Below are positions 40,410 to 49,665 of a stretch of DNA of 64,000 nt, in pieces (the stretch's first letter is position 1; each line of letters opens with the position of its first letter). Source of the stretch: Patescibacteria group bacterium. Lineage in GTDB: Bacteria > Patescibacteriota > Gracilibacteria > BD1-5 > UBA2023. The position numbers were made by a program, and so were the translations under genes. Location: contig JBMOJK010000004.1 in NCBI GenBank assembly GCA_049315825.1, positions 648 to 64,647 on the forward strand. The letters are read 5' to 3'. The notes below the pieces were generated by a model. The model was not told where the DNA came from. It saw only the letters and a program-made list of their open reading frames with translations, and searched no databases.

Positions 40410-42722
40410 TTATTCATCAACCTGCATGTCGAGATTTGCTGTACGAACTGTTCCATCAGCGTAGGTAACAGTAAGCTTCACTTGGTACGTACCTGACTTT
40501 TCAAATACATGTGTTGGATTTGCTTCTGTGGAAGTGGTTGTCCCATCTCCAAAATCCCACTCATATTTGTCGATCTGACCAACACTTCCGAAACTATCGA
40601 AGTCGATGCTCATCCCTGCCTTTCCAGAAGAAAGACTCGAATGTACTGTGAGTTTCTTTGGAACTTCTTTGATAATAATCTTGCGACTCGTGGAAGCCTT
40701 TGATCCATCATCCTTCACAATCGTGAGCGTGGCAGTGTACTCACCCGGGATGTAATATGCGTAGGTTTTTACAGCATCTCATTCGCTTGGCTCTTTTCCT
40801 TCGCCAAAGTCGTAGATGAATTTGGATATTTTACCCGAGCGAACGCTCGATGCAGATCCATCGAAGGTAATCTTTACTGTTGCATAGAGGCTATCGAGAT
40901 CACTTTGTCCATCTGGAAGAACGAGCTTAAAGCTTGGTGAGATTTCTTCTTTCTTTCCTTCGATAATAATCTTTTCAGATGCATTGAGCTTCTCATCCGA
41001 ACCCTGCTTCTCAAAGATGTAGTTCACATTGATTTCATATCGTTTTTCAACGACGAATTCCTGTTGAACAATGAGTCACTTTTTCTCATCTCCACCGAAA
41101 TCCCACTGTACATCCGTGAGTTCATAACCTGGATTCTTAACTCGTACATCCGATGCATCGAAAGTGAGCTTCGATGGGATTGTAAAGTTCTCAATCTTAT
41201 ATGCTCGAAGGTCCGAGTTATATGTACCCTTAAGGAGAGATTCCCCTGAATCATTTGTCACTTTTATCATCGAATCTGAATTCGAATTTCTAATAAGTGC
41301 GAGCGGAGCTTTGATTGTAATTCGCTCTGTTACTGTGACAGTATTCCCTGCTGTATCACGAAGTACAGCGCTAATCTTATATGTTCCATAGCTTGGAAAA
41401 CTCGTTTCGAAGGATTCCTCATTGGAAAGTGTTGCGGTGTCATCGAGTAACCACTTAACTGATTCGATTTCTCCCCCACTTTTTGACTTCTTATCAGTAA
41501 GTGAGAAACTGATTTTTCGGACATCCGTAGGATCAACCTGATACTTGATAGATGCACTAATAGGAGAATCTGATCTAGATTTTACAAAGAAAATACGATC
41601 ACAAACATCCTTCCTCTTGGGGTCACTGTTTGCTGCAAGACAGACGAATTTATCTGCCTTCTCGATCTTGGTCGTAAACTTCAGTTCACGCGAAGCAACA
41701 GTATCAAGGTTATCACTCGTATACCAAGCAAGATTCCCCAGTGTTTTAAGATCCGTTGCATCGAAGACCACATTCTTGTCGGTAGACTTGATATCTACAC
41801 TCCCAACAATATTGATCGACTCAAAGACGATCGGCACCACTTTCCATTCTCGAGTAACGGTATCATATCCACTATATGTGCCCTTTGGAGTAAATTTACC
41901 CTTACGATCGTAGGTGTAGACCAAACTTTTGTCAGCAGCTGGATTAGATCATTTCTTATCTACAGTGCCATCGCCATCGTAGTCGATTTCATAACCGTCA
42001 ATATCGATCGTCTTAGACGCAAATTTCACATCCGATGCGAGATCGTATCGGATCGTCACTGGTCCGATGATATTATTGAAGTCTACGATTTCAGCAGAAT
42101 CTTTAAATCGATCGGAGAGATAGAGATCATTGTCATATGCGATCACTCCCCCGTTCGGATTTACGAAGTCTGAAGCCCCGATTTTCTTGAAAAGAAATGC
42201 CCAAAATCCGATGTTCGAGAAGAGGATGATCCCTATAAACGCAGAAAGGATGAAGTAAACAGTCTTCTTACGTCGGAATTCTTTCTTGGTAATAATTGCC
42301 CGAAACAAGAAGATTACCCAAGTTACCGAGAGGATAAATGTAATCGATCCGAAGATTCCATTCACTAGATTACTCAGGAGTGATGCCACCTGAGAAGGAT
42401 TGATCCCAAATCGGATAAAAAATCGCGCCTCTCCAGGATTGAAGACAATATATGCCAGGAATGACCCGAAGAATATTAGTGCGACGAGAAAGAGTGTACC
42501 AAGGATCTTCATAAACTGAGCCGGCTTCATAGGCTCGCGCTTTTTGGGAGGTTGAACTGGTGGAGTTGGCGGAGTTCATACAACCGATGCTTGTGGAGCT
42601 ACGGCAGGAGTTGATGTCGCCTCCTTAGACACCGAAGAAGCCTCTATTGAAGAGGCTCATTCGGCGAGGATAGCATCGAGAAAGCTTGGTCGGCTTGTCT
42701 CGTTATTCTCAGGTGTGGTCAT
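40410..42722 (-). CDS. Polytopic membrane protein with PKD-type repeats (770 aa)
   Basis: Four track ORFs (41949..42530, 41076..41924, 40779..41027, 40410..40718) share one frame and join at TGAs. The frame extends upstream through two more TGAs to ATG 42720-42722. The N-tail is Pro/Thr-rich and is followed by three TM helices. PKD signatures: EIDYDGDGTVD, VQWDFGGDEKK, FIYDFGEGKEP, YEWDFGDGTTT. The start lies 11 nt after the giant gene's stop. Confidence 0.8.
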
Positions 42723-42732
42723 AGATTTTTAC

Positions 42733-45700
42733 TTATTTAAGCCAATCAGGGAGATCATCCATATTCGTGGTAGATGGAAGAATTGGAGTCTCTGTTGTTG
42801 GTATTGGTTCTGCCTTCTTCTTGGCTGAAGATTTTGCCTTTGGTTTTGGAGTAGGCTTTTCAGCTACAGACTCAGACTTAATCGAAGCTGGTACTGACTC
42901 AACTACAGCCTGAGGTACTGAGGGCTGAAGATCTTTCAACCAATCAGGAAGGTCGTCCACTGCAGGGGCTACAGGGGCTGCAGCTTCCGGAGCTGACTCA
43001 GGAATAGCAACAGCTTTTGATTCCTTAGACTCGTCCAATGGGAAATATTGTGTAGTTACTGGCACATCTTGAGTATATGCAGGAGCTTCTTCCTGGTGAA
43101 TCTCCTCTGTAGGCATTTCCTGTGGAGTACTTTCTACAGCAATCTGTTCTTCCTGTGCTGCAGTTCCAGAGAGCCAACTTGGAAGTTCAACTTCAGCCTT
43201 TTCCTCCACGGCAATGGAAGGTTCAGATGCTGGAGATGTAACTTCTTCAGCAGCAATCATAGAAGGTACTTCAGCATGGACCGCTTCTACCGTCTGAGTT
43301 GTCTCAGGCTCTGGAACAATAGGTGCTTCAGGAGTGGAAATTGCTGATGGAGTAGTCGCAGATAGCCAACTTGGAAGGGTAACTGGTTCTGGAGTTACAG
43401 GAGCTGCCACAACTGGTTCAGCTGGTTTCTCATCAACCACGAGTCGTTCAGTTGTACCCTTAAGCCAATCGGGAATGACAGCGGGTTGAGATTGAGTAGC
43501 ATCTGTCGAATTCCCTTCGGATGAACTAAGTGGATCAAAGGTAGGTGTTGGAGTAGATGCTACTGAAGCTGGGACGCTTGCGAGGAGATCATTGAAAGCG
43601 GGGGCCTTTGGTTCTACCTGAGTAGAGAGAGTTGAGCCAACAACCGTCGAACTTACCACAGGAGCCGGACTTCCCTTATGGAAGATTTTCTCGATGAGGA
43701 AATCTTGGAAGCCCATTGTCCCATTTCGATTTGTGATCTTGAAAATCCCGAAGAGTGCAATAAATGCAAGAACGATAAATCCAACAATGTAACCAAATGC
43801 CTTAAGGATGCCAAGTAGGATAGATATGATATCAGTTGGTCCTGTTGATGTCTGTGTTTCGGTTGCTACTGAGAGGTTCTTTGATCCTCCGTTGATGATA
43901 ATGCGGAGTTGCTCCTTGAGCGTGAGCTTATCAGCATCGCTGATGTTTTCATCAGACTTGATATACCCAAGAATCTTTTCTCCGATCGTCTTGTTGAGTT
44001 CAGTATTGGTTGGATGACCGAGGATTTCACCTACGAGTCCAGACTTACCATCCTTTCCAAAGATTTCTTCGTAGTGCGTATTCGATGTTGGGATGAGCTT
44101 TTTGAGCACACTCGTTGCGAGTGACATTTCATCTTTGGTTTCTGACTCAGTAAGGAGGAATCCATCGAGGATCGTGAGGAATTCATTCTTCACGTCGTCA
44201 GAGACTGAGAGATCAGCCACTGTTCGTTCCATGGCAACTACAGCCTTAGTTTTTTCTGTAGTATCCTGCCATCCATCCTGAAGCTGGCTAAGCTGTTGCA
44301 TAAGCTTTACGCGGTCTGCTTCTGGAGCTTTTGTTCGTACGAGATCTTTGAGCTTTCCGAGAGATGCTTTGTCAGCATCAGAAATCGCCTTGTTAAGCGC
44401 TCCTGAGCCTTCGAGTGTATCCTTGATAGCATTTTCATCCGCGTAATCAAGAACGATCTTGATCTTCTGTGATCCGATCTTCTTCCCTGATCCATCATAG
44501 ATTGCAACCATAATGTTGCGCTCCTTGGTAGAACCGAGGTTTCGGATCATAAATGGCGCTCCGTTGGTGTATGAGTCAGTTCCAGCATTATCGGCATCGT
44601 CTGAGACCTCACCATTGAGATCACTATCCGCAGTGATATCAGAGTCGATTGTATACTTCGTTACATCACCCTTTGATTCTCCAAGATATACGAATACCTT
44701 TTCGTCAGAGCGAGAAACATGGATTTCGTTATCTTCTGCCTTTGGATATGTAAATACTACGAGGTTTTCAGAAGAATTCTTGAGACGTGCTGCATTGATA
44801 ACATCCTTGCGGAGTGGAACTGTAATTGTCTTCGTATCTGTTCCATCCGAAACTTCGAGTGTCACTTGTGAGGTCGTATCTTCTGTATCGAGGTTTACAA
44901 CATATGAGTCACGATTCTCTGATGTATTTTTTCCTACTGTCCACTTTACCTTGCTGTAGATTCCGCTTGTTGTATTCATGAATACATAGCGGTTTCCGAT
45001 ACCGTAGTATTCGAGGTTTGGCCGGAGCTCGTTGCGGATCGTGATCTGAGAATACTTTGTATTTGAAATCCCCTTGTACGTTGCCTTTACCTTCATATTG
45101 AAAGATCCTGGCTTGTCGTAGGTGTGCTTTACACTTGGAGATGTCGTCGTTTCATCGTAGAAACCATCACCATCGTAGTCCCACTTAAACTCTGTTTTCT
45201 CAGTAATATCCTGCTGGAGAATATTCTTTACATTTGCCTGGAAAGCGAGTGATTCACCTACGTTGGCACTTGATTTAGATGCCTTGAGTGTGATGAGTGG
45301 AGTATTGATATTGTCAGATGCGAGCGTAATAGAATATCGCTCATCGTGTCCTTCTTCTGAGTTTACCTTTGCACCATTTGAGTCTTCGAGCGTCACGGCG
45401 AAATAGTATTTCCCGTTGATGCGTGGAAGAACAAACGTAGTCTTTGGTGTACGTGTAATACGGAAATCCTGTGGTTCTGGATCGCTATCAGTGTAGTAGT
45501 ACCAGAGATATGAAACAATCACTCCATCTGGATCAATTGCATTGTTTGCTGCAACATTTACGATAACTGGATCAGCATCTGGTTTGTCAGATGTTACAGT
45601 GAGTGAGGCGAATGTTGGGAGAACATTTTCAACCTTTACATTCATATATGCGGTACTTGTCTTCCCTGTTTTCTGGCTACGAACCGTAAGGCTCACTGGA

Positions 45701-48192
45701 AAACATCCAAGTTCATCAAACTTATATGAGAAATCTCGCTGTGTAGAGTTCTTTCCTCCGTACTTCCATGTATAGGTAAGTCCGTTGGTTGTGCCATCTG
45801 TATTGATACTCTCTTCACCAGTAATTCGAATTGCCTTCGTGCGGTCTACGATATAGGCATCCCCTTCAGGACATGCATTTGCAACCGGTTCTACTGTATC
45901 TTGATCGTTTTTAACCGTGATCGCTGCAAGCGGTGAATCTGCATCGGAAACATACACCTTTCGAGTGATCGTGTTTGAATTTCCAGCATTTGGATTTCCA
46001 CGAACTGTGAGTCGTACATCGAATGTTCCAGACTTCTTGTATGTATGAAATGCTCGGCTTTCGCTTGTGTTTTCGCTTGTCCCATCACCGTAATCCCATT
46101 CGAATACAGTGGCCTCTTTTGACTCTGCAACGATAGCAACGGGTGATCCAAGCTGTCCAACCTTTGGAGTGACGATCAGCTTCACAGAGAGGAGAGATTC
46201 TACATTGAAATCCTTCTTTGTATTCGTTACCTTCCCCTGCTGGTTTCCAAGATCGAGAACGATCGTATGATTTCCCTTTGTTGTGAATGTATAGTAACCG
46301 AGTGCACCATTTCGTGAGCTATTGTTGAGTTCAACTCGTTCTCCATCAATCGTCCAATTAAATGTAAGCTTTGAGGCATCGAGGCTATCTGGATCATAGC
46401 TACGAGTTGCATCGAGCAGTACAGTGTTTGGAGTTTCTGCAGATGCAGACTTTACTTCAAACTGAGCGATTGGATCTTTTGAATCAATACGAACTGAGAT
46501 ATTGTCCGTATCCTGCTGACCATTCGAAGAAAGAGTCTTCAGTCGCACTACATAGTTTCCCATGCGTGGGAACTTGTAGTTGATAGACGAAGCCTTTGTA
46601 GAATAGAGTGACTTTCCTGAATCTGCTTCGAGAATTGACCATTCGTATGTAAGAAGCACAGATGCAGCATTGGAGCTTGCCTGAAACTTGAAGTCATCGC
46701 TTGCAAAACCGGAAGTCTTATCGGCTCGGATTGTAGCGATTGGATCTTGAACCTGGAGGTTGATCGTCTTGACAACTTCAGCCTTCTCGTTCGTTGTGAT
46801 CTTGAGTCGGATTGTGTAATTCCCAGCTCGTGCATACACCTGACGCTCTACACGTGGAGATCCATTGTATACAGAAGTATTTCCATTTCCGAAATCCCAT
46901 TCTGTCTTGAGAATAGTAGCTCCTGCTGCCGCAGTAGAAGATGAAGCATCGATGATCAATCCTGAATTTCCCTGGTTTGGAGTAATCTTGTAGCTATCTG
47001 TCTGCGAAACATTTGATCCATTAAGATAGAGAAGAATGTTTGCAAGCTTTGGTTCTACACGGATTTCTTGAGTTCCATTGAATGGGAGAACGTCCATTCG
47101 CCCCTTTGAATTTCGACTTGCAGAAAGAATCTGGAGATTCACAGTGTATACCCCTTCTTCCGTGAATTTATAACCGATTGATGGACCATTTCCGATCACC
47201 TTTCGAGTATTTCCTACTCCCTTGAGCCACCAAACATAGTTCGAATCTGGGATGCGAACTCCCGATGGATCACGCGCTTCGTTTGCGCGGAGCGTTACGG
47301 TAAGTGCAGCATTTCCATGATCAGGAGTTGCGCTGATCTTAGTAGAAATCTGTCCGATCTTTACCTTCGTAAGAAGATCCTTGAGTGACTGAGCAAGACG
47401 ATCAGTATAGAGATTAGAATCAGGATATTTCTGAACGAGAGCGATCGAAGTAAGAACTCCGTTTGCAAGTCCAATATTGAGATCCTTGTCCGTATCAGGA
47501 AAAGTATCCATACTCTTCGTGACTGCAGTCTTGAGATCCTGGAGAGATGCGAATTTTACACGTCCGTCTACTTCGTAGTCGCGACCGATAGACTGAGAAA
47601 TAGACTCGATCTGCGCACGGTAGAAATCAAATGCCTTACCCTCATCAGGATCAGCTGCATATGCAGAATCAATTGAGAATACACTAGAAATCGCATTGAT
47701 AATCCCCTCCTTCTTATTCTTGCCTGTTCCAATAATGAAACGTGTAATAGAATACGCAAGGGTAATGAGGATAAGACCAGCAATCGCATAAACGATGATT
47801 TTCTTGGCCTTCTTGACCTTTTCTTCGTCGCCCGCTGATGTGAGCACAGAGAAACCAGCCCAGAGAATCAGCGCTACTGTAATGAGTGCCAAGAATGTGA
47901 GCAAGTATGCTACAACATCCTGAACATATTCAGAGAAGCGCTTATCTGTTTTGATATCGTTGACACCATTCTTTACAAGGTCTGTTCCCTTGTCGAGTGA
48001 ACAGTACTTCGAAGAACTTGGGTCATTCGAGTTACAGATATTTATTTTTGTGTCGTCTTCACAGTTGAGTGCCCAAATGCTGCATGCTGCGTGTGCAGTA
48101 GCAGGAGCGGAAGTGAGTGATCCTGTTTCAATAAGTGAAACAAGTGGAAGAGAGAGGAATCCGAGGAGGATGATTCGCACCAAACGAAGCAT
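42733..48192 (-). CDS. Giant (1,819 aa) surface protein: signal peptide, T4SS-pilin-like (TrbC/VirB2-like) two-helix membrane module, PKD/Ig-like repeat array, third TM helix, Pro/Glu-rich tail with five [LI]P[DS]WL[KS] motifs
   Basis: A single uninterrupted ORF containing no TGA. I place the start at ATG 48190-48192 (MLRLVRIILLGFLSLPLVSLIETGSLTSAPATAHA). The pilin-like block, at about 47728-47970, reads VVAYLLTFLALITVALILWAGFSVLTSAGDEEKVKKAKKIIVYAIAGLILITLAYSITRFI. PKD signatures include EWDFGNGNT, FEWDYGDGTS and FKWDYDGDGFY, plus degenerate copies. A TM helix lies at about 43741-43830 (ISILLGILKAFGYIVGFIVLAFIALFGIF). TAA stop. Confidence 0.85.
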   Translation of the reverse strand: MLRLVRIILLGFLSLPLVSLIETGSLTSAPATAHAACSIWALNCEDDTKINICNSNDPSSSKYCSLDKGTDLVKNGVNDIKTDKRFSEYVQDVVAYLLTFLALITVALILWAGFSVLTSAGDEEKVKKAKKIIVYAIAGLILITLAYSITRFIIGTGKNKKEGIINAISSVFSIDSAYAADPDEGKAFDFYRAQIESISQSIGRDYEVDGRVKFASLQDLKTAVTKSMDTFPDTDKDLNIGLANGVLTSIALVQKYPDSNLYTDRLAQSLKDLLTKVKIGQISTKISATPDHGNAALTVTLRANEARDPSGVRIPDSNYVWWLKGVGNTRKVIGNGPSIGYKFTEEGVYTVNLQILSASRNSKGRMDVLPFNGTQEIRVEPKLANILLYLNGSNVSQTDSYKITPNQGNSGLIIDASSSTAAAGATILKTEWDFGNGNTSVYNGSPRVERQVYARAGNYTIRLKITTNEKAEVVKTINLQVQDPIATIRADKTSGFASDDFKFQASSNAASVLLTYEWSILEADSGKSLYSTKASSINYKFPRMGNYVVRLKTLSSNGQQDTDNISVRIDSKDPIAQFEVKSASAETPNTVLLDATRSYDPDSLDASKLTFNWTIDGERVELNNSSRNGALGYYTFTTKGNHTIVLDLGNQQGKVTNTKKDFNVESLLSVKLIVTPKVGQLGSPVAIVAESKEATVFEWDYGDGTSENTSESRAFHTYKKSGTFDVRLTVRGNPNAGNSNTITRKVYVSDADSPLAAITVKNDQDTVEPVANACPEGDAYIVDRTKAIRITGEESINTDGTTNGLTYTWKYGGKNSTQRDFSYKFDELGCFPVSLTVRSQKTGKTSTAYMNVKVENVLPTFASLTVTSDKPDADPVIVNVAANNAIDPDGVIVSYLWYYYTDSDPEPQDFRITRTPKTTFVLPRINGKYYFAVTLEDSNGAKVNSEEGHDERYSITLASDNINTPLITLKASKSSANVGESLAFQANVKNILQQDITEKTEFKWDYDGDGFYDETTTSPSVKHTYDKPGSFNMKVKATYKGISNTKYSQITIRNELRPNLEYYGIGNRYVFMNTTSGIYSKVKWTVGKNTSENRDSYVVNLDTEDTTSQVTLEVSDGTDTKTITVPLRKDVINAARLKNSSENLVVFTYPKAEDNEIHVSRSDEKVFVYLGESKGDVTKYTIDSDITADSDLNGEVSDDADNAGTDSYTNGAPFMIRNLGSTKERNIMVAIYDGSGKKIGSQKIKIVLDYADENAIKDTLEGSGALNKAISDADKASLGKLKDLVRTKAPEADRVKLMQQLSQLQDGWQDTTEKTKAVVAMERTVADLSVSDDVKNEFLTILDGFLLTESETKDEMSLATSVLKKLIPTSNTHYEEIFGKDGKSGLVGEILGHPTNTELNKTIGEKILGYIKSDENISDADKLTLKEQLRIIINGGSKNLSVATETQTSTGPTDIISILLGILKAFGYIVGFIVLAFIALFGIFKITNRNGTMGFQDFLIEKIFHKGSPAPVVSSTVVGSTLSTQVEPKAPAFNDLLASVPASVASTPTPTFDPLSSSEGNSTDATQSQPAVIPDWLKGTTERLVVDEKPAEPVVAAPVTPEPVTLPSWLSATTPSAISTPEAPIVPEPETTQTVEAVHAEVPSMIAAEEVTSPASEPSIAVEEKAEVELPSWLSGTAAQEEQIAVESTPQEMPTEEIHQEEAPAYTQDVPVTTQYFPLDESKESKAVAIPESAPEAAAPVAPAVDDLPDWLKDLQPSVPQAVVESVPASIKSESVAEKPTPKPKAKSSAKKKAEPIPTTETPILPSTTNMDDLPDWLK

Positions 48193-48270
48193 TGTAAGTT
48201 CCTTTAGAGGGTAGAGAAGCGATTTACGCCTTACCGTCACGTTATCATATGACCGTTTTGAATGCAAAAA

Positions 48271-49665
48271 TTAGCTACCACTACATGCTTCATCGTATCC
48301 AGACTGACCTATGAGGTGCTTTTTTTGGCAGTCCATTTCTTTAACTGTATCCGATAAGATTGCCTTTGCATTGGGATTACTGCGGTCGAGCGCATTTCCA
48401 AAATATGCTTCAAATTCCGAAGTAAGACCGCGATCAAAATTCACAAGACTCACATCTCCTGCAGGGATAAAGCTATCATATCGCACCCAAGGAAAGTTTT
48501 TATTCATGGTTTTATCCTTGCGTTCCTCTACGAGATCATTGCGTGCTGGGAGGTAGTGTGGAAACGCTTCAAGATACGCCTGAGCGGATTCCTTGCTTGA
48601 AAGATGTACGAGGAAATCTGTCGCAGCCGCAGGATTTGGAGCGTATTTAGAGAGAGCAAAGTATGTATAGCGAGCAAGATTGAGCTTCTTACCGACACCT
48701 GTTTGTGGAATCTCGGACGATCGTAGATCTTTTTTCTCAAGAACCGCATCAGAACTCGCACGCTTGAGTGAGTACTCAATCTCACGAAGCAGTGAAGGAT
48801 ATCCGAAGATTACCCCGATCTTTCCGCGTACAAACATATCCGTAGAGGAAATCCCCTGACGATCCATCGCATCTTTGAGCTTTATGAGGTGGTTTGCATT
48901 GTCAGAGCCTGCATCGTTTCCAGAATATGAAAGATATTCACTGAGTGCTTTTTCAGCCTGAGTGTCTGCCATGTTCGAGAATGCATTGATTCCACCCTGG
49001 ATCAAGAAGAGTGATGCAATATTTGCTGCCTGCGTGACATAACGATTTCCCAGTCCAAGTCCTACTGGAACAGTATCTTCGGTGATATTTTCTGAGATGT
49101 ATTTCTTAAGTTCGTCCCAAGTGAGTGGTACAGCATTGCTCACAACTGAGCGATTGTAAAAAGCGCCCATAGTCTCATACGCAAGTGGCACTCACTTGAT
49201 AGATCGGATTTGGATCTCCTTCCCGTCCGCACTCTTTCCTGACTCAGTCACGATGAGATCATCGAAGAGTTTGTTGTAGTTGCGGGCCATATCATCGATA
49301 TTCACCGCTGAATCTGGAAGATTGGCAGTCTTGGTTTCAAGAATCCCAGCGCCCGACGATGGAACAACGAAAATATCTGGAGAGTTCCCATCAGCAATCA
49401 CATTGAGGAGTGATTTCTCATAATCTCCGTAGGTCGCAAACTTGGTAACGACTACGTTCGTATCTTTGTAGCTGTCTTTTTTGAATGCTTTGATGATATC
49501 ATCAAAGCCTGTGCTGTCATCTCCTACAACCCACATGGATATCTCTTTTGGTCCTTTTGGTCCTTTTTGCTGGCTTTTAGAATTCGCCATGAGTGTGAAT
49601 CCAATACCGATCGCGAGCGCAAGCACTGCTATCCCGATGAAGAAGAAGAGTTTTTTCTGTGACAT
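48271..49665 (-). CDS. Extracellular solute-binding protein (ABC transporter SBP family 1-like), orphan
   Basis: Track ORFs 49192..49665 and 48271..49191 are contiguous in frame across TGA 49192-49194 (..IRSIK-G-VPLAYETMGAFYNR..). It has an N-terminal membrane anchor or signal (FFFIGIAVLALAIGIGFTLMA). No permease or ATPase genes are adjacent. Confidence 0.65.

Follow-up and report, generated by a model that had tools for sequence, protein, structure and literature searches.

A repeated PDWL peptide in the predicted cytoplasmic tail of a giant Gracilibacteria surface protein is a candidate multivalent docking motif

We analyzed a 64,000-nucleotide stretch of DNA (hereafter the window) from a Patescibacteria group bacterium (GTDB lineage Bacteria; Patescibacteriota; Gracilibacteria; BD1-5; UBA2023; NCBI GenBank assembly GCA_049315825.1, contig JBMOJK010000004.1, positions 648 to 64,647 of the forward strand) and specifically a minus-strand gene coding for a giant membrane protein whose C-terminal tail contains five copies of a short peptide that we call the PDWL box. 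An earlier note made from the letters of this DNA had drawn attention to five hexapeptides of the form [LI]P[DS]WL[KS] and had proposed that they are docking motifs for a cytoplasmic partner. Translation of 42736-48267 on the minus strand confirmed all five hexapeptides where the note had placed them, with the fifth lying directly before the TAA stop codon (42733-42735) and with a pair of Asp residues ahead of each of the last two (DDLPDWLK at 42934-42957 and 42736-42759). The features of this gene, with coordinates given as positions in the window, are as follows.

42733..48192, minus strand: giant membrane protein gene, 1,819 amino acids (aa) from the ATG at 48192, TAA stop at 42733-42735
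48088..48192, minus strand: putative signal peptide MLRLVRIILLGFLSLPLVSLIETGSLTSAPATAHA, read from the sequence, cleavage presumed
47734..47892, minus strand: T4SS_pilin (VirB2/TrbC-like) two-helix membrane hairpin with a Lys-rich cytoplasmic loop (Pfam PF18895, residues 126-178)
43834..47733, minus strand: extracellular region of ~1,300 residues, a PKD-domain array and then a helical stalk (Pfam)
43741..43833, minus strand: C-terminal transmembrane (TM) helix DIISILLGILKAFGYIVGFIVLAFIALFGIF, then KITNRNG (positive-inside), from hydropathy; helix in the AlphaFold2 (AF2) model with a predicted local distance difference test (pLDDT) value of 77-96
43681..43713, minus strand: juxtamembrane block GFQDFLIEKIF, immediately following the last TM helix, in 17 of 17 orthologue tails; AF2 helix, residues 66-75 of the 390-aa model
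43459..43476, minus strand: motif 1, IPDWLK, followed by G (translation and genome scan)
43360..43377, minus strand: motif 2, LPSWLS (translation and genome scan); AF2 helical turn
43168..43185, minus strand: motif 3, LPSWLS, followed by G (translation and genome scan)
42934..42957, minus strand: motif 4, DDLPDWLK (translation); AF2 helix at 321-324 of the model with a pLDDT bump
42814..42858, minus strand: Lys-rich patch KPTPKPKAKSSAKKK before the last motif, from the K/R fraction in orthologues
42736..42759, minus strand: motif 5, DDLPDWLK, at the extreme C-terminus; the last 10-residue block has a pLDDT of 72, the tail maximum
PDWL-box peptide: TTNMDDLPDWLK

The open reading frame (ORF) of this gene as listed begins at a TTG codon at 48267 and would give 1,844 aa, while the true start is probably the ATG at 48192 (MLRLVRIILL), which has AAAGGA 7 nt upstream. 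The membrane hairpin matches T4SS_pilin (PF18895) at 31.4 bits, above the gathering cut-off of 26.6, and the protein also exceeds the cut-offs for PKD_4 (PF18911; 132.6 bits, cut-off 27) and PKD (PF00801; 126.5 bits, cut-off 23.5), with a further Pfam match to K319L-like_PKD at 53.4 bits. The 331-residue tail is predicted to lie inside the cell on the basis of hydropathy and the positive-inside rule, and the residues that follow the last TM helix as well as those in the loop of the pilin hairpin are rich in Lys and Arg, as an inside face would be. The note had also placed the tail on the cytoplasmic side, and this placement is supported both by the topology and by two groups of motif carriers described below, namely soluble DHH/DHHA1 proteins that have no signal peptide and Chloroflexota proteins where the motif arrays follow N-terminal zinc ribbons. 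An AF2 model made from the single 390-aa sequence covering the last TM helix and the tail has a pLDDT below 50 over most of the tail, indicating disorder; motifs 2, 4 and 5 coincide with short helical turns or local rises in pLDDT, and the last ten residues reach 72.

The hexapeptides are irregularly placed along this chain. The spacers of 33, 64, 78 and 66 residues given in the note proved to be start-to-start distances, with the actual spacers being 27, 58, 72 and 60 residues long. For a tail of this composition the expected number of [LI]P[DS]WL[KS] matches is 8e-5 whereas five are observed, and among 200,000 shuffles of the tail one match occurred in 21 and two matches in none. The genome-wide search that the note had called for was performed by scanning all 33 contigs of the 1.06-Mb genome in six frames with the pattern [LIVM]P[DSE]WL, and this returned the five matches in the giant ORF and only two elsewhere, both in ORFs (53 and 103 aa) that are non-coding in appearance. 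At the DNA level, Tandem Repeats Finder (TRF) detected no tandem repeat, and the similarity among the copies extends over no more than 26-31 nt at each motif. Between copies 4 and 5 there are four nucleotide changes, all of them synonymous, and copies 2 and 3 share 17 of the 18 nt that code for the hexapeptide. Nucleotide-level tandem duplication, which the note had named as a competing cause, is therefore not borne out by the TRF result or by the purely synonymous differences between copies 4 and 5.

We also compared the tail with those of orthologous proteins. Orthologues of the giant protein are present in 41 of 41 related genomes that represent three families of one order, and 17 complete orthologue tails yielded 76 motifs with the following composition by position.

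positions -3 and -2: mostly D/E
position -1: L42, I23, V7, M3
position 0: P76 (Pro is required by the search pattern)
position +1: D51, S12, E8 (D/S/E 71 of 76)
position +2: W76 (Trp by construction of the search)
position +3: L73
position +4: K55, R9 (K/R 64 of 76)
position +5: G32

The resulting consensus of the PDWL box is [DE][DE]-[LIV]-P-[DSE]-W-L-[KR]-G. All 17 tails contain between one and six copies and 15 of them contain three to six, with one truncated tail having a single copy. A motif lies within 3 residues of the C-terminus in 14 of the 17 orthologues, where typical endings are DDLPDWLK* or DELPEWLK* (the asterisk marks the stop), and in 13 of the 17 every Trp of the tail is inside a motif. 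Identity of the orthologues to the tail studied here is 0.47-0.97 in the motifs and 0.23-0.43 in the spacers, which agrees with the note's expectation that the motif would be better kept than the spacers. Thus, the core is conserved while its flanks diverge within predicted disorder, as is characteristic of a short linear motif (SLiM), and these comparisons indicate purifying selection on a peptide motif and not a DNA repeat. The statement in the note that the tail shows no other conservation did not hold, as a GFQDF[LI]IEK[IF]F block follows the last TM helix in all 17 orthologues and the Lys-rich patch is present in most. Specifically, 14 orthologues have their last motif at the C-terminus, and in 13 of these the K/R fraction is 0.15-0.38 in the patch versus 0.03-0.15 elsewhere in the tail. 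We additionally observed that the third family of the order (L073-L078) keeps PDWLK/PDWM boxes while its C-terminal peptide is instead HLLxPxHDLIxP, the conservation of which at the same tails suggests that there is a second docking motif in that family.

The motif also recurs on other proteins of the class. When 201 class genomes were searched with a DNA pattern for [LIVM]PDW[LF]K, ~150 matches were obtained in 78 genomes versus ~10 for a reversed control, and the carriers were characterized from 60 fetched match sites. They are of three kinds, one being acidic-tailed PKD proteins of 720-1,270 aa that cross the membrane once and another being giants of ~2,000-2,150 aa with T4SS_pilin and PKD domains that end in ..GPIPDWLKG*. 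The third kind comprises soluble DHH/DHHA1 phosphoesterases of 477-618 aa that have no TM helix or signal peptide and whose disordered C-terminal extension ends in ..IPDWLKQ*, ..IPDWLKSE* or ..LPDWLKKKSD* (L037, L038, L079, L081, L083, L099, L116 and L117, from at least three families of the class). These soluble enzymes show that the motif works in the cytoplasm, a conclusion that is independent of the topology argument. Judged from its C-terminal peptide, this nucleotide-processing enzyme thus appears to share its recruiting hub with the surface proteins. The motif is located 0-4 residues from the C-terminus in ~25 non-orthologous proteins. Matches inside folded proteins were occasional and are taken as chance, an example being VPDWLKV in ribosomal protein S4. 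As a separate observation, PKD single-pass proteins of ~700-740 aa from another family (L085, L086 and L090) contain internal PDWLK/PSWL boxes and share a near-C-terminal peptide that reads ..PIAIIKADSL.. in L085 and L090 and ..PIMFIRADSL.. in L086.

Outside of this class, a sample of 284 genomes from other classes of the candidate phyla radiation (CPR) gave scattered single matches only (~38 versus ~22 in the control) with no clusters. Two protein-level searches returned little: a tail-only search of a 5.8-billion-protein collection found a single fragment, because a low-complexity query cannot reach significance at that database size, and a motif profile run against 1.84 billion representatives passed four proteins, with all 30 columns modeled and the flank included, such that it provides no usable census.

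A triple-motif scan of 185,579 species genomes (one per species) gave at least 120 loci, of which 80 were listed. Nearly all of the listed loci are from Chloroflexota (Anaerolineae, Caldilineaceae, Ardenticatenales, Thermoflexales and Chloroflexia), with one from Peribacteria. The Chloroflexota carriers are either double-zinc-ribbon proteins in which the motif array is followed by C-terminal TM helices or proteins whose array is flanked on one or both sides by TPR repeats, so that together with the PKD single-pass and DHH/DHHA1 proteins the motif recurs on several unrelated protein types, another characteristic of SLiMs. The largest arrays among the matches listed reach 42 PDW (59 PxW) copies. 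A logo of 966 Chloroflexota motifs reads [ED][ED][LVI]PDWLx[ED]L, with Trp in 966 of 966 by construction of the search. With regard to individual arrays, the 42 PDW (59 PxW) boxes of one protein in L122 (an Anaerolineales metagenome-assembled genome, JACKAT010000044.1) extend over more than 2,300 residues, and L192 has 34 PDW boxes in more than 1,345 residues of a single protein. Matches from Nitrospirota, Blastocatellia and actinomycetes (Pseudonocardiales, Trebonia) were rejected as carriers and are instead leucine-rich repeat (LRR) proteins with a 23-residue period and 17-24% Leu. LPDWL forms part of the 23-residue LRR consensus in Roc-COR and other LRR proteins (L133, L147, L145, L153, L154, L157 and L189), and a regular-expression census of the motif must therefore filter LRR proteins.

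Clustering the neighbors of 78 Chloroflexota loci revealed a main client cluster of 57 loci, ~15-26 of which belong to one conserved operon. This operon contains genes for DUF6754, a 208-aa polytopic membrane protein, the zinc-ribbon/PDWL client and a 222-aa polytopic membrane protein, in addition to a 584-aa MutL-family (PF13941) actin-fold ATPase and a 320-aa protein; examples of its loci are L138:306-2057, L132:2196-2819, L194:4036-4773, L180:920-1585 and L171:7041-8000. To our knowledge this Chloroflexota operon has not been described. FtsA also has an actin fold, and the presence of an actin-fold ATPase beside the arrays is suggestive. The MutL-family ATPase and DUF6754 were considered as a hub shared by both lineages and were rejected, as neither was found in the Gracilibacteria genome analyzed here.

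The PDWL box has an evident look-alike in the C-terminal peptide (CTP) of FtsZ, which in E. coli ends in ..DYLDIPAFLRKQAD and is the ligand of FtsA, ZipA, SepF and others. The FtsZ of the genome analyzed here (contig C19) ends in DLDVPAFLRNKMR* and so has a CTP of its own, with FtsA encoded adjacent to ftsZ. SepF was not found in this genome, nor was a true MreB, the sole match besides FtsA being in a 631-aa ORF that we take to be DnaK. The boxes do not lie at the C-terminus of an FtsZ, their host being a membrane protein with T4SS_pilin and PKD domains, and they also depart from the CTP consensus D-[IV]-P-x-[FY]-[LM]-[RK] in having Trp and mostly Asp at x where FtsZ has Ala, Thr or Pro. Among 30 relatives the FtsZ peptide reads D[LY]D[VI]P[AT]F-L-R-N, with Phe (once Tyr) and never Trp at the aromatic position and never Asp at x, and seven FtsZ copies from five array-carrying Chloroflexota genomes give the same reading, bar one divergent paralogue (DLPPFFR). 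Two look-alike peptides are therefore kept distinct in the same cells of both lineages, which is explained most simply by two receptors, or at least by two binding demands. FtsA is present in 198 of 201 class genomes, in 170 of the 170 that are of good quality and in five of five Chloroflexota tested; this universal presence in both groups means that its distribution speaks neither for nor against FtsA as the partner. The apparent set of actin-fold proteins in this genome consists of FtsA, the probable DnaK and a 397-aa FtsA/PilM-like paralogue on contig C10, where a 205-aa cytoplasmic TPR protein, this paralogue and a membrane protein follow one another (L255:610-2424, minus strand). The TPR protein is single-copy in 168 of 201 class genomes, motif-poor families included.

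Taken together, these comparisons show that the motif is real, selected, cytoplasmic, C-terminus-favoring and recurrent on unrelated proteins in two lineages. We hold with moderate confidence that the five peptides are conserved copies of a cytoplasmic SLiM, the PDWL box, that hold the tail by avidity on a cytoplasmic hub. The multivalent docking motif proposed in the note is thus supported as far as sequence reaches, with recruitment of a protein partner being a step beyond this that we infer. The tail would be ordered as a juxtamembrane helix, an acidic chain rich in Pro, Glu, Ala and Thr that contains the boxes, a Lys-rich patch and a final C-terminal box. Each box may fold into about one helical turn upon binding, with the Pro as a cap and the Trp and Leu buried, and the conserved cytoplasmic protein to which several boxes would jointly bind the tail is probably oligomeric or filamentous. 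Other clients of the same hub in the class would be the smaller PKD single-pass proteins and the soluble DHH/DHHA1 phosphoesterases, with zinc-ribbon and TPR proteins being the clients in Chloroflexota. Since box and FtsZ tail stay strictly separate in any one genome, we think that there is more to the hub than the pocket in which FtsA receives the FtsZ tail. An unlikely extension of this reading is that an unrecognized hub common to Chloroflexota and the Gracilibacteria-type CPR class couples the PKD fiber, anchored by its pilin hairpin, to the cell interior.

Several observations weigh against docking on a common hub. The Chloroflexota logo has no basic residue at +4, and there could be different partners in the two lineages or convergence on the motif. 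The phyletic profiles of FtsA and of the 205-aa TPR protein do not discriminate between these candidates, and the partner search as a whole, which covered phyletic profiles, the Chloroflexota operon and the actin-fold set, singled out no partner. In addition, the families scored as motif-negative were defined by one strict DNA pattern and may include false negatives. Finally, aromatic 'stickers' repeated along a disordered acidic tail might function with no folded receptor at all, an explanation that we weigh next together with other alternatives.

According to this sticker explanation, Trp/Leu boxes would drive self-association or condensation of the tail or would dip into the membrane interface. 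Almost all Trp residues of the disordered chain are located in boxes, the dozens of fairly regularly spaced boxes in Chloroflexota fit a stickers-and-spacers arrangement, and the Lys-rich patch could bind anionic lipid. However, the invariant Pro (required by the search pattern), the dominant Asp at +1 and the exact register point to stereospecific recognition, the acidic flanks, which are strongly so in Chloroflexota, should repel anionic membranes, and single copies at the exact C-terminus of soluble enzymes better fit a docking tag, and we thus consider this explanation improbable. Somewhat more weight, although we still regard it as unlikely, is given to the boxes being mimics of the FtsZ tail that bind the FtsA pocket for the FtsZ peptide, either tethering the fiber to FtsA filaments or the division site or competing with FtsZ. 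Both peptides are built to one pattern (acidic, hydrophobic, Pro, x, aromatic, Leu, basic) and stand at the very end of the chain, behind a disordered linker. A partner that forms filaments would be well matched by several boxes on one tail, and FtsA is the main cytoskeletal candidate because SepF and a true MreB were not found. Mimicry is disfavored by the aromatic residue, which is Phe or Tyr and never Trp in FtsZ and is Trp in 76 of 76 and 966 of 966 boxes (by construction of the searches), by x, which is never Asp in FtsZ and mostly Asp in the boxes, and by the lack of a basic +4 residue in Chloroflexota. Furthermore, FtsA is universal and its distribution leaves the restriction of the motif to these clades unexplained.

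Much less likely is that the C-terminal box is a degron or adaptor tag that is read by an AAA+ protease or its adaptor to control turnover. Such a role would suit a motif that, in many unrelated proteins, forms the very C-terminus behind a flexible linker, and a C-terminal peptide of SspB (LRVVK) does dock on the N-domain of ClpX; yet most copies of the box are internal, the clients are large structural surface proteins conserved as single-copy genes, and nothing in the data ties the motif to proteolysis. That the peptides have no function and are chance matches, remnants of duplicated DNA or elements of a folded repeat, for example an LRR, has almost no probability in our view. The occurrence of LPDWL in the LRR consensus, with LRR/Roc-COR proteins as false positives in the scan, and the near identity of motifs 2 and 3 at the nucleotide level (17 of 18 nt) are in line with such an origin, while the very low chance expectation and the conservation of the motif across the whole order and beyond as the spacers drift contradict it. 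An LRR in particular is rejected for the tail itself by the irregular start-to-start distances (33-78 residues) in place of a 23-residue Leu-rich period, by its Leu content of 5% and by the AF2 disorder. We also rejected an LPXTG sortase signal, given that the fourth residue is always Trp, nothing hydrophobic follows, the motif is on the cytoplasmic side and it is sometimes on soluble enzymes. WxL-domain and extracellular cell-wall-binding readings were ruled out by sequence and topology.

By analogy, the nearest relative of the PDWL box in design would be the FtsZ tail, a C-terminal docking peptide on a disordered tether. Like the CTP, the box is a short cytoplasmic peptide near the membrane that ends a long disordered linker and probably becomes a short helix on binding, and avidity would in both cases come from many copies, provided by the FtsZ polymer there and by a multi-copy tail here. 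Unlike the CTP, most boxes are internal with several per chain, the host is not FtsZ and binding of the box by FtsA is hypothetical. The acidic tip of SSB (..DDDIPF) also has an acidic run and an Ile/Leu-Pro-aromatic core at the end of a disordered tail and is a hub-binding tag, and some relatives even end in DDDDIPDWLK*. However, the SSB tip ends at the Phe carboxylate whereas the PDWL box continues with Trp-Leu-Lys and also occurs internally, and the box is on membrane and phosphoesterase proteins and not on SSB; the six-frame scan of the whole genome found no PDWL motif on the SSB of this organism. The DPW/DPF/NPF arrays of epsin, Eps15 and AP180, which are read by the AP-2 appendage and EH domains, likewise consist of many tiny Trp- or Phe-centered motifs in acidic disorder, and the Chloroflexota proteins with 40-60 boxes resemble these endocytic-adaptor arrays. 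This is an analogy of design only, as the sequences and organisms differ, and we know of no bacterial receptor homologous to the endocytic-adaptor readers. With regard to the giant protein itself, giant predicted PKD membrane proteins have been reported in Absconditabacteria/Gracilibacteria such as Vampirococcus lugosii (PMC8080830), where they are very large, occur in code-25 CPR bacteria with type IV pili and are thought to mediate host attachment. That account describes no cytoplasmic tail or repeated motif, and the likeness is one of description, not of a homology comparison.

The giant gene is situated between two conserved neighbors, listed here.

48271..49665, minus strand: family-1 solute-binding protein, 464 aa, one in-frame TGA at 49192-49194 (SBP_bac_8 and SBP_bac_1 under code 25)
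40410..42722, minus strand: 770-aa multi-TM PKD protein with five in-frame TGA codons, downstream, synteny conserved

The solute-binding protein gene is upstream of the giant gene in 15 of 19 orthologous loci, the 770-aa PKD gene begins 10 nt after the giant gene's stop codon, and the order of solute-binding protein, giant protein and 770-aa PKD membrane protein is conserved across the family. TGA is a sense codon in this genome, consistent with code 25 (TGA = Gly). Specifically, a tRNA with anticodon UCA (contig C27:23382-23460) adjoins tRNA-Gly(GCC) and shares G1-C2-G3 and U73 features with both tRNA-Gly genes. The MiaB-like, MurG, Mur ligase and solute-binding proteins encoded in the window become full-length once TGA is read as Gly, and the 770-aa PKD protein is likewise whole only under this reading. 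No TGA occurs in frame in the giant ORF, which is bounded by TAA on both sides and therefore reads the same under codes 11 and 25. Orthologues of the giant gene (relatives G001-G040) differ widely in their number of in-frame TGA codons, from 0 in this genome through 1-7 to as many as 60-88 within one family, and such a spread in one gene indicates that closely related lineages differ enormously in how far they use the reassigned codon.

No published description of the motif was found in the literature on the PDWL motif, on Gracilibacteria PKD proteins and pili or on Chloroflexi zinc-ribbon repeats. CPR bacteria live attached to other cells, and we know of no account of how their giant surface proteins connect to the cell interior. 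A docking peptide present in multiple copies would provide a direct handle on this surface-to-interior link, with a 10-residue synthetic peptide as bait, and much larger arrays of the motif are available in Chloroflexota that can be cultivated. It would mark surface PKD, DHH/DHHA1, zinc-ribbon and TPR proteins as clients of one hub and would thereby represent a rare bacterial motif-based network besides those of the FtsZ tail, the SSB tip and clamp-binding motifs. Under the unlikely reading of one unrecognized hub in both lineages, the network would be of the kind known from eukaryotic endocytic adaptors, nucleotide-scavenging DHH enzymes would be brought to the site of the fiber and contact with host or prey would be linked to intracellular events. 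The presence of the motif in Chloroflexota and in one CPR class also bears on the proposed kinship of these two groups, which, under that same unlikely reading, could both have inherited it from a common ancestor.

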